DNA from: a plasmid
Sequence record: NZ_CP120968.1
Strand: one strand, 5' to 3'
Length of the DNA: 48,574 nucleotides
The notes under the pieces were generated by a model. The model saw only the letters and a list, made by a program, of their open reading frames with translations, was not told the DNA's origin and did no database searches. How positions within the stretch are numbered: the stretch's first letter is position 1; every line of letters starts with the position of its first letter. Both the position numbers and the translations under genes were made by a program. This document shows, one piece after another, positions 33,035 to 33,961 of the stretch.

Positions 33035-33961
33035 TTAAAAGTCGTAGTCGTCATCGGTCATTTTTTCAGTGTCCGATTCATTGTTTGCAGCCGTTACCTG
33101 TTGCAAAAATTGATTTTGATCAATCATCAGTTCTTTGAGTTGCGCCACTAGTGAAGACGGTTGAACTTCGTAGACAGCGTTAAAGCCAAGTGACATTAAT
33201 GCATGATTGGCACCATAGGAGGCCAGATTGATGGCTTCGGTGGCATCGTCAAGGTTAGCTTCTAAGAAGTCTTTTTCAGTTTGCATGAGTTGATCAAACT
33301 GTGTATTAATCCAATACTGCAGTTCGGTTTGATCACTTACAGTGAGTTCTTCAAATCTGAGGCGAAATTTGTAACCAATATAAGCACTAAAAAGAGCGCT
33401 ACCGCGGAGAATATTAGCCAACATTTGGTAAGTATTGACGAGAGCCTGTGTTTGAAGTATTGTCCAGTATTTACCAAACGAGAGCCCAGTTTCAGTCAGA
33501 ATAAAAAGGGCTTTTTTCTGTAAGGCCATATCGCTAGTGCTCATTTGGGCTAGTTGGTCAATTTCAGCTTGCAGATTGGCATTATCATCTGCCCAAGTAA
33601 AACTTTCACCGCCGTTACCCGGAATCAGAGCCCGGAAAATGGTCGTACAGCTTTTGGCATGGACTGATTTCATAAAGGTAATGGTGTTTAATACGGATTC
33701 TTCTTGTTGAGTTCGCCGATCGTGGCGAATAGCAGGGGTGCCAACTTCTGATTGGTAGACGGCTAACATTGATGTACCTGCCAACATACGAGTAATGGCC
33801 TGTTGTTGAGTATCTGATAGCTGTTGCCAAGCCGTCTGATCATTCGTGATGGGAATCCGAATGTCCAACCAAAAGTTAGTGGTGAGTCGTTCCCACATGT
33901 ATTTATCGAAATTATCTTTAATATCATCCCAGTTAATTGCTTTGTAGTATAAGTAGTCCAT
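33035..33961 (-). CDS. degenerate NrdF paralog (pseudo-R2): lacks four of six metal ligands and the radical tyrosine but keeps the NrdE-binding C-terminal tail
   Basis: Aligned with the adjacent nrdF: D->A (MLAVYQ), E->K and Tyr->Cys (FMKSVHAKSC), E retained (LTETGL), E->S and H->F (LRGSALFSAY); intact 308-aa ORF ending DDDYDF. Confidence 0.7.
   Translation of the reverse strand: MDYLYYKAINWDDIKDNFDKYMWERLTTNFWLDIRIPITNDQTAWQQLSDTQQQAITRMLAGTSMLAVYQSEVGTPAIRHDRRTQQEESVLNTITFMKSVHAKSCTTIFRALIPGNGGESFTWADDNANLQAEIDQLAQMSTSDMALQKKALFILTETGLSFGKYWTILQTQALVNTYQMLANILRGSALFSAYIGYKFRLRFEELTVSDQTELQYWINTQFDQLMQTEKDFLEANLDDATEAINLASYGANHALMSLGFNAVYEVQPSSLVAQLKELMIDQNQFLQQVTAANNESDTEKMTDDDYDF

Follow-up and report, generated by a model that had tools for sequence, protein, structure and literature searches.

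A ligand-deficient NrdF paralogue encoded beside a complete NrdF in a plasmid-borne class Ib ribonucleotide reductase operon of Lactobacillales

Why should a ribonucleotide reductase (RNR) operon encode two small (beta) subunits side by side, one of them without most of its metal ligands? The question is raised by a 48,574-nucleotide stretch of plasmid record NZ_CP120968.1 (the window), in which the open reading frame (ORF) at 33035-33961, between nrdE and nrdF, had been described in a first-pass annotation as an intact 308-aa NrdF homologue with a dead metal site, resembling eukaryotic Rnr4. The ORF starts with ATG and matches Pfam PF00268 (E=2.6e-41, 142.3 bits versus a cut-off of 33.6), which bears out its reading as an intact NrdF homologue; we call the gene nrdF'. 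Judged from sequence, its product proves to be a selected, non-catalytic beta paralogue that keeps an NrdE-type docking tail, and its gene always lies directly ahead of that of a complete NrdF. NrdF' represents a real, conserved family of dead beta subunits, undescribed as far as we could find, whose operon travels on plasmids and occurs widely among Lactobacillales.

The ligands were mapped by phmmer against PDB sequences, NrdF' being aligned to E. coli NrdF (3n37), whose dimetal ligands are Asp67, Glu98, His101, Glu158, Glu192 and His195, with the radical on Tyr105. Residues 7-109 of NrdF' align without gaps to the E. coli protein, so that the numbering is common to both over this segment, and the alignment of S188 and F191 is anchored by an invariant GYKF six residues downstream. 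The codons at the cofactor positions, each read in the raw sequence, span 33389-33763 on the minus strand; the C-terminal tail is given with them:

33761-33763, minus strand: GCC, A67 in place of Asp67
33668-33670, minus strand: AAA, K98 in place of Glu98
33659-33661, minus strand: CAT, H101, His101 kept
33647-33649, minus strand: TGT, C105 in place of the radical Tyr105
33491-33493, minus strand: GAA, E157, Glu158 kept
33398-33400, minus strand: AGC, S188 in place of Glu192
33389-33391, minus strand: TTT, F191 in place of His195
33038-33061, minus strand: C-terminal tail MTDDDYDF, residues 301-308, presumed NrdE-docking peptide

The NrdF' of the window thus retains two of the six dimetal ligands, the equivalents of His101 and Glu158. 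The four replacements claimed at first pass (Asp to Ala, Glu to Lys, Glu to Ser, His to Phe) hold in the alignment to E. coli NrdF and in the codons, and no shift that would restore a metal site appeared, the mapping being the same in phmmer and MAFFT alignments. The canonical nrdF (32070-33020) has all six ligands and the radical Tyr. A further loss had been overlooked, that of the C-terminal radical-transfer Tyr. In canonical NrdF this Tyr lies in a G-x-G-Y-L-M-G motif and is the counterpart of Tyr356 of E. coli NrdB (SSYLVG), from which the radical is handed over to alpha; NrdF' of the window has an Asn at the YLMG position.

We then scored 11 positions in MAFFT alignments of 46 to 52 sequences. 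Asp67 and the pathway Tyr are both lost in 18/18 NrdF' sequences, and all 11 positions are intact in 33/33 canonical NrdFs (18 partners and 15 stand-alone proteins). The losses that define the family are therefore those of the metal-1 Asp and of the radical-relay Tyr. The outer tier of the family keeps Glu98, Glu158, Glu192, His195, Tyr105 and sometimes His101, i.e. four or five of the six ligands, and the heavier degeneration seen in the window is, on this comparison, a later, lineage-specific stage. The Tyr to Cys change, correctly read in the window (C105), is likewise specific to this lineage and no feature of the family: the radical position may hold Y, C, A, T, V or F in its members, and Cys105 is, as far as the alignment tells, one of several residues at a position no longer under constraint. 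The equivalents of N264 and K260, the helix H Asn and Lys that line the NrdI channel, are also gone from NrdF'. Taken together, the alignments support the conclusion that NrdF' would be unable to build a dimetal-tyrosyl cofactor. At the other end of the protein the acidic tail announced at first pass is present, the ORF ending in MTDDDYDF, and M301, D305, Y306, D307 and F308 are invariant among 21 NrdF' sequences; the NrdE-docking peptide is thus predicted to be kept.

The fold is that of an R2 protein. An AlphaFold2 model of NrdF' has a mean predicted local distance difference test (pLDDT) score of 86.9 and is disordered only over the first 7 and the last ~15 residues, the latter being expected for a docking tail; its best Foldseek matches are the NrdFs of S. 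sanguinis, S. typhimurium and E. coli, with template-modelling (TM) scores of 0.83-0.90 and a root-mean-square deviation of about 2 Å. Among 21 PDB sequence matches, the top 19 are bacterial NrdFs of class Ib or Ie (E 2e-51 to 1e-21) and the two weakest, 2rcc_A and 6zjk_C, bear only the generic beta-subunit name. These sequence and structural matches place NrdF' outside the eukaryotic Rnr4 lineage, and in the tree it groups with the NrdFs of Lactobacillales. An R2lox reading was considered and rejected. With respect to class Ib NrdF, NrdF' lacks the ligand set, the radical Tyr105 and the pathway Tyr. It scores below every NCBIfam cut-off, including that of TIGR04171 for class Ib NrdF (190.8 bits versus 355), its best match being NF007185 (207 versus 525), and the adjacent canonical NrdF passes TIGR04171 with 428.7 bits. 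Being below the curated class Ib cut-off, NrdF' receives only a generic name from the NCBI pipeline. With respect to class Ie, in which VPK or QSK replaces three carboxylates and both His and the Tyr, which becomes 3,4-dihydroxyphenylalanine (DOPA), are kept in what is the sole active beta (PMC11846895), NrdF' shows an A/K/S pattern, His195 replaced by Phe and Tyr replaced by Cys. The mismatch with class Ie pointed out at first pass is therefore real.

Is this gene a relic? The ratio of non-synonymous to synonymous substitution rates (dN/dS) is 0.10 for NrdF', 0.09 for NrdI and 0.035 for both NrdE and NrdF (24-26 pairs per gene from eight operon variants). These values come from plasmid variants at 87-98% identity, pairs of distant operons having been dropped, with synonymous sites saturated. 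By tblastn, about 150 plasmids (87-100% identity) carry the ORF at full length and in one piece, the sole exception being cut by the end of its record, and neither these copies nor the chromosomal ones, which go down to 37% identity, show a frameshift or stop. Among 5.8 billion proteins searched, a graded family was recovered, running from 99% down to 40% identity, all of 305-313 aa, and at 37% identity the length is still 305-320 aa. Fifty-one columns are invariant among 21 aligned members. On these data NrdF' is an intact NrdF paralogue under purifying selection and not a pseudogene.

The gene order nrdI-nrdE-nrdF'-nrdF is found in every NrdF' locus examined (18 distinct operons). Beyond the plasmids, NrdF' lies on chromosomes or genome assemblies of Liquorilactobacillus hordei, Nicoliella lavandulae, Lacticaseibacillus porcinae, L. 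pabuli, Paucilactobacillus nenjiangensis, Limosilactobacillus gorillae, Loigolactobacillus binensis and Enterococcus lemanii; L. plantarum 4_3 carries a second type of NrdF' operon, and others are found on metagenomic and other uncharacterised contigs. In a profile search of 1.84 billion cluster representatives, about nine full-length NrdF' clusters (50% identity) score above 336 bits, followed by a drop to canonical NrdFs at ~230 bits. Just under this gap comes a wider tier (P0048, P0050, P0059), with the same middle position in the operon, in Carnobacterium iners, Streptococcus equinus and Enterococcus spp. and on plasmids of Lactococcus lactis, E. faecium and E. faecalis. The nrdE-nrdF'-nrdF arrangement is recurrent in Lactobacillaceae and is not confined to them, since the family reaches Enterococcus, Carnobacterium, Streptococcus and Lactococcus. 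NrdF' and a complete NrdF have been inherited together across at least four families of Lactobacillales. Note that the profile scan of species genomes rests on a peptide pattern common to canonical NrdF and returned mostly stand-alone NrdFs, which we reused as the "solo" set; the true NrdF' loci in it are L017, L018, L019 and L021 only.

This joint inheritance is also visible in the trees. Partner NrdFs form a clade at 100% neighbour-joining bootstrap, nested among the NrdFs of Lactobacillales and about 58% identical to stand-alone NrdFs, and the 12 core NrdF' sequences likewise form a 100% clade. The NrdF' and partner trees mirror each other (pairwise distances r=0.93, Mantel p=2e-4), with NrdF' evolving about 2.6 times faster than its partner. 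In the plasmid collection, partner-type NrdF (at least 90% identity) occurs in 152 records and NrdF' in about 150, and the more distant partner-type NrdFs that were opened (Lactococcus, E. faecium) adjoin an NrdF' too. Partner and solo NrdFs differ by 25 fixed differences, many of them in helix A or flanking the radical Tyr; helix A of NrdF contacts NrdI in the Mycobacterium tuberculosis (Mtb) complex (PMC11470190), and we did not count these differences as evidence on the interface with NrdF'.

Where does constraint remain in NrdF'? The mean pairwise identity per segment was compared between NrdF' and the partner NrdF of the same operons:

N-terminal 16 residues (YLYYKAINW...): NrdF' 0.73, partner 0.58
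tail, residues 301-308: NrdF' 0.70, partner 0.61
helix C: NrdF' 0.65, partner 0.84
helix E: NrdF' 0.36, partner 0.85
helix F: NrdF' 0.40, partner 0.85
helix H: NrdF' 0.22, partner 0.78
residues 258-292: NrdF' 0.20, partner 0.85

In NrdF' only the N-terminal 16 residues and the tail equal or exceed the partner in conservation. Moderate to strong conservation is seen in helix C and at the end of helix B (Q70, S71, E72, P76, R79, T84-E88), and the strongly relaxed parts are helices E and F (metal site 2), helix H and the stretch 258-292 that runs towards the pathway Tyr. The core of the dimer interface in B. anthracis NrdF has been placed at the end of helix B (PMC6754363); by analogy, the conservation of this part in NrdF' is suggestive of a retained dimer interface.

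The organisation of the cluster bears on whether the two beta proteins are made together. In the window it comprises:

36243-36680, minus strand: nrdI, flavodoxin-like activase (Pfam PF07972, E=7.9e-32; coordinates of the mechanical TTG ORF)
34068-36236, minus strand: nrdE, class Ib alpha subunit (Pfam PF02867, PF08343 and PF00317; same name in the identical plasmid NZ_CP151095)
33962-34067, minus strand: nrdE/nrdF' spacer of 106 nt, with a Shine-Dalgarno (SD) sequence AAGGAG at 33976-33981
33035-33961, minus strand: nrdF', degenerate, non-catalytic beta paralogue, 308 aa, ATG start
33021-33034, minus strand: nrdF'/nrdF spacer of 14 nt; the SD AAGGAG (33031-33036) overlaps the TAA stop of nrdF' (33035-33037)
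32070-33020, minus strand: canonical nrdF, partner beta, 316 aa (Pfam PF00268, E=1.1e-81, 275 bits), with all ligands, radical Tyr and pathway Tyr
36760-36775 and 36728-36743: putative NrdR-box palindrome pair with a 16-bp linker, just upstream of nrdI

NrdF' was said to follow nrdE directly; it is indeed the next gene, at a distance of 106 nt, in an operon on the minus strand. The canonical nrdF lies, as stated at first pass, 14 nt downstream, and the two proteins are 31% identical. A good SD precedes nrdF' in 16/16 tabulated operons. The nrdE-nrdF' gap is 9-13 nt in ten of these 16, the SD overlapping the nrdE stop in most of the ten, and the nrdF'-nrdF gap is 9-17 nt in 11 of the 16, where the SD mostly overlaps the stop; in the window this second junction reads TTTTAAGGAG. 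NrdR boxes were scanned for with the consensus ACACWATATATWGTGT, allowing at most 4 mismatches and 30-33 bp between box starts. The linker of the pair upstream of nrdI holds a -10 hexamer, TATGAT (36754-36759), the same arrangement is found upstream of nrdI in 10/15 other operons scanned, and the paired-box architecture is the one described for NrdR operators (PMC13584703). With these SD/stop overlaps and NrdR-like boxes, the cluster resembles an RNR operon under ordinary regulation, from which NrdE, NrdF' and NrdF would be produced jointly.

What could such a protein do? Yeast R4 lacks iron ligands and forms an active beta-beta' with R2 (PMC3267527). NrdF' combines incomplete ligands, selection and a complete beta always alongside (18/18 operons), as an Rnr4-like subunit would, and the reading towards which we lean, with modest confidence and on the strength of operon layout, SD/stop overlaps, co-divergence and residue constraint, is that it serves as the non-catalytic beta' of a distinct four-gene class Ib RNR (nrdI-nrdE-nrdF'-nrdF), pairing with NrdF like yeast Rnr4. 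Whether the operon encodes an obligately heterodimeric class Ib RNR, a subclass found in bacteria that has converged on yeast Rnr2-Rnr4 and in which one side only can carry and deliver the radical, we regard as evenly poised. In such a scheme NrdF' would be translated beside NrdF and pair with it as a beta-beta' heterodimer; NrdI would load the NrdF half only with the Mn2-Tyr radical; the NrdF half would fire the radical into one NrdE protomer, and the tail of NrdF' would hold the second. NrdF' may additionally stabilise NrdF or aid its maturation. The pairing would hard-wire the asymmetry of the class I holoenzyme, as in yeast Rnr2-Rnr4. Mtb NrdF2 is reported to bind NrdI at 2:1, with only one protomer suggested to need the radical (PMC11470190), which fits the one-active-protomer logic proposed here for NrdF' and NrdF.

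Several observations weigh against this pairing. All 15 NrdF' of the tree form a single clade at only 73.5% neighbour-joining bootstrap, with long branches; the SD of nrdF' in the window stands 13 nt from the ATG, longer than usual; and we found no expression or proteomic data on NrdF'. Moreover, NrdF' is ~35% identical to stand-alone NrdFs versus ~31% to its own partner, and being slightly nearer to the former it gives no positive sequence signal of mutual interface adaptation. The conserved docking tail, finally, would fit equally well the main rival, in which NrdF' is a decoy or regulator: a beta'2 homodimer whose tails occupy the beta sites on NrdE, acting as a competitive damper, a buffer or a protector of idle NrdE. 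We consider this rival unlikely, though worth serious attention. In its favour, the tail is the most conserved part of NrdF', everything that catalysis needs is missing, and the sequence bears no visible mark of adaptation to the interface of the partner. However, a constitutive inhibitor translationally coupled, at roughly equal dose, to its own competitor is hard to rationalise, and a decoy that acts by its tail only would have no need of what is conserved at the end of helix B and the start of helix C. NrdF' is, in addition, never found apart from its partner and co-diverges tightly with it, which suggests a dependence on the partner and not on NrdE alone. It is because NrdF' is co-translated with NrdF and never found without it that we place the decoy behind the heterodimer.

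The other readings are progressively less compatible with the data. A role in maturation only, NrdF' transiently binding apo-NrdF or NrdE for folding or for Mn/NrdI-dependent cofactor assembly outside the working holoenzyme, appears rather improbable: yeast Rnr4 has been suggested to act in a chaperone-like way (PMC3824934, PMC3267527) and the dN/dS of NrdF' resembles that of the accessory protein NrdI, but a transient helper has no evident need of an invariant NrdE-docking tail, and the NrdI-channel residues are lost. A new cofactor chemistry, with a metal-free or Cys-based radical by analogy to class Ie, has some appeal in that class Ie is an active beta without a full ligand set and that the window NrdF' retains H101 and E157 and has a Cys where the radical Tyr would be. 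The variability of that position, the pathway Tyr for radical transfer to alpha missing in all 18 sequences, substitutions other than VPK/QSK, the loss of His195 and the constant presence of a complete NrdF make it very improbable. As for a functionless duplicate in decay, the faster rate of NrdF' and its scores under the NCBIfam cut-offs are what such a gene would show, but a dN/dS of about 0.10, the absence of frameshifts and stops in the plasmid and chromosomal copies and the invariant columns effectively refute it.

The plasmid setting points to mobility. The 4.6-kb cluster matches part of the Lactiplantibacillus plantarum plasmid NZ_CP151095 at 100% identity and is present in 153 plasmid records (Lactiplantibacillus, Latilactobacillus, Pediococcus and relatives), flanked by insertion sequence (IS) elements and a resolvase. 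Its downstream boundary in the window (28512-31942) is made up as follows:

31130-31942: IS3-family transposase ORF
30384-31016: serine recombinase
29395-30297: YitT-family membrane protein gene
28512-29287: IS5-like element

This boundary fits a cassette-like transfer of the operon between plasmids. Comparison of window 32070-36680 with the operons L017, L101, L102 and L012 further reveals a recombination mosaic, in which the synonymous divergence (dS) varies more than 10-fold among genes of the same plasmid pair (window versus L017: nrdI 0.056, nrdE 0.84, nrdF' 0.45, nrdF 0.09), two allelic lineages having swapped segments within the operon.

Side features were noted at nrdI and in the spacers. 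At the 5' end of nrdI (36680-36720, minus strand) the conserved first strand NILYISLSGNT lies in frame upstream of the listed TTG, up to 36716, with no ATG, GTG or TTG in frame before it in the window; an ATG at 36720, with a well-placed SD (AAAGGA), is one base out of the nrdI frame (ATGA TTA GTT...). L017 and L012 share this layout, annotated there with an ATT start, and in more distant operons nrdI begins with an ordinary ATG. The layout could reflect a non-canonical start, a frameshift or a crippled nrdI. On the Lactococcus lactis plasmid pLLN8-1 (L107, about 870-1640), the nrdI frame seems to extend C-terminally by ~110 aa, part of which is annotated as a DUF1971 protein in its own right; either a fusion or a split in the annotation may be the cause. 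The 106-nt nrdE-nrdF' spacer, confined to the plasmid lineage of the window, L012 and L017, contains a short GC-rich hairpin (GGGTCACAAGACCC; window 33990-34060, minus strand) with no T-run after it, which might influence how the mRNA is processed or at what relative dose the downstream genes are expressed.

Other regulatory features were seen nearby or elsewhere. A second putative NrdR-box pair (window 46742-46788; 2 and 4 mismatches, 31 bp between starts) stands directly upstream of a major facilitator superfamily (MFS) transporter gene (PF07690; ORF 46796-48196, plus strand), which in the matching plasmid is followed by genes for an HD-domain protein and an S-adenosyl-homocysteine hydrolase, and a nucleoside-related transport operon under NrdR control may lie on the same plasmid. 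A Crp/Fnr-family regulator gene (cNMP_binding and HTH_Crp_2) lies divergently upstream of nrdI in L006, L098, L099 and L107 and nearby in L001/L002 and L010; this recurrence hints at oxygen- or redox-responsive control besides NrdR. No gene of this family adjoins the four-gene operon in the window. A different degenerate NrdF-like family, of 311 aa, is found in Limosilactobacillus (L008 8001-8936; P0022-P0041), with Asp replaced by Ser, His101 by Ala or Asn, Glu192 by Thr and His195 by Ser or Gly, and without the DYDF tail; its gene directly follows nrdI, with no nrdE between, and the protein passes NCBIfam NF007183.

The first-pass annotation knew of no such partner for a bacterial class Ib system, and we found no paper on a ligand-deficient second bacterial NrdF in the searchable full-text literature, where most subscription journals fall outside coverage; within it, dead R2 partners are described only in eukaryotes. 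One plasmid paper names both genes, nrdF and nrdF2, and makes no comment on them (PMC6662855). NrdF' proteins are labelled plain "ribonucleotide-diphosphate reductase subunit beta", and with this label or the nrdF name they are tallied among catalytic genes. If the pairing proposed here is true, the "one live, one dead" small subunit arose more than once, a sign that asymmetry is of general advantage to class I RNR. The enzyme would be a natural, hard-wired form of the asymmetric alpha2-beta2 holoenzyme that plasmids have carried through the lactic acid bacteria of food and gut, and NrdI/NrdE/NrdF'/NrdF, bacterial and easily expressed, would be a tractable system in which to study half-sites reactivity, what the second beta tail does and partner-aided assembly of the Mn cofactor. 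For food microbiology, the operon is carried by about 150 plasmids of L. plantarum, L. sakei, Pediococcus and relatives and also by Lactococcus and Enterococcus plasmids, and it probably contributes to aerobic or stress fitness.

How does NrdF' compare with known systems? With canonical class Ib NrdF (S. sanguinis 4n83, E. coli 3n37) it shares fold, length, operon partners and the tail type E-x-M-x-x-x-D-Y-D-F; unlike it, the window protein has two of six ligands and no radical Tyr, pathway Tyr or NrdI-channel Asn and Lys. Class Ie NrdF is likewise an NrdF-type beta with substituted carboxylate ligands, encoded with nrdI and nrdE, whereas NrdF' has lost His195, does not conserve the Tyr, has no pathway Tyr and always stands beside a complete NrdF. 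Apicomplexan R2_e2 and other eukaryotic beta' proteins offer the parallel of a second, non-canonical R2 beside a canonical one (PMC3824934); they are eukaryotic, of class Ia and without operon linkage. The closest parallel to the role proposed here is S. cerevisiae Rnr4 (Y4), an R2-fold paralogue that lacks metal ligands, is retained beside a complete beta and is inactive alone (PMC3267527). NrdF' differs from it in its independent origin within bacterial class Ib NrdF, in a partner that uses Mn and NrdI, not Fe, and is encoded in the same operon, and in the loss of the pathway Tyr, accompanied in the window by that of the radical Tyr; the heterodimer, known for Rnr4, is for NrdF' the arrangement that we propose.

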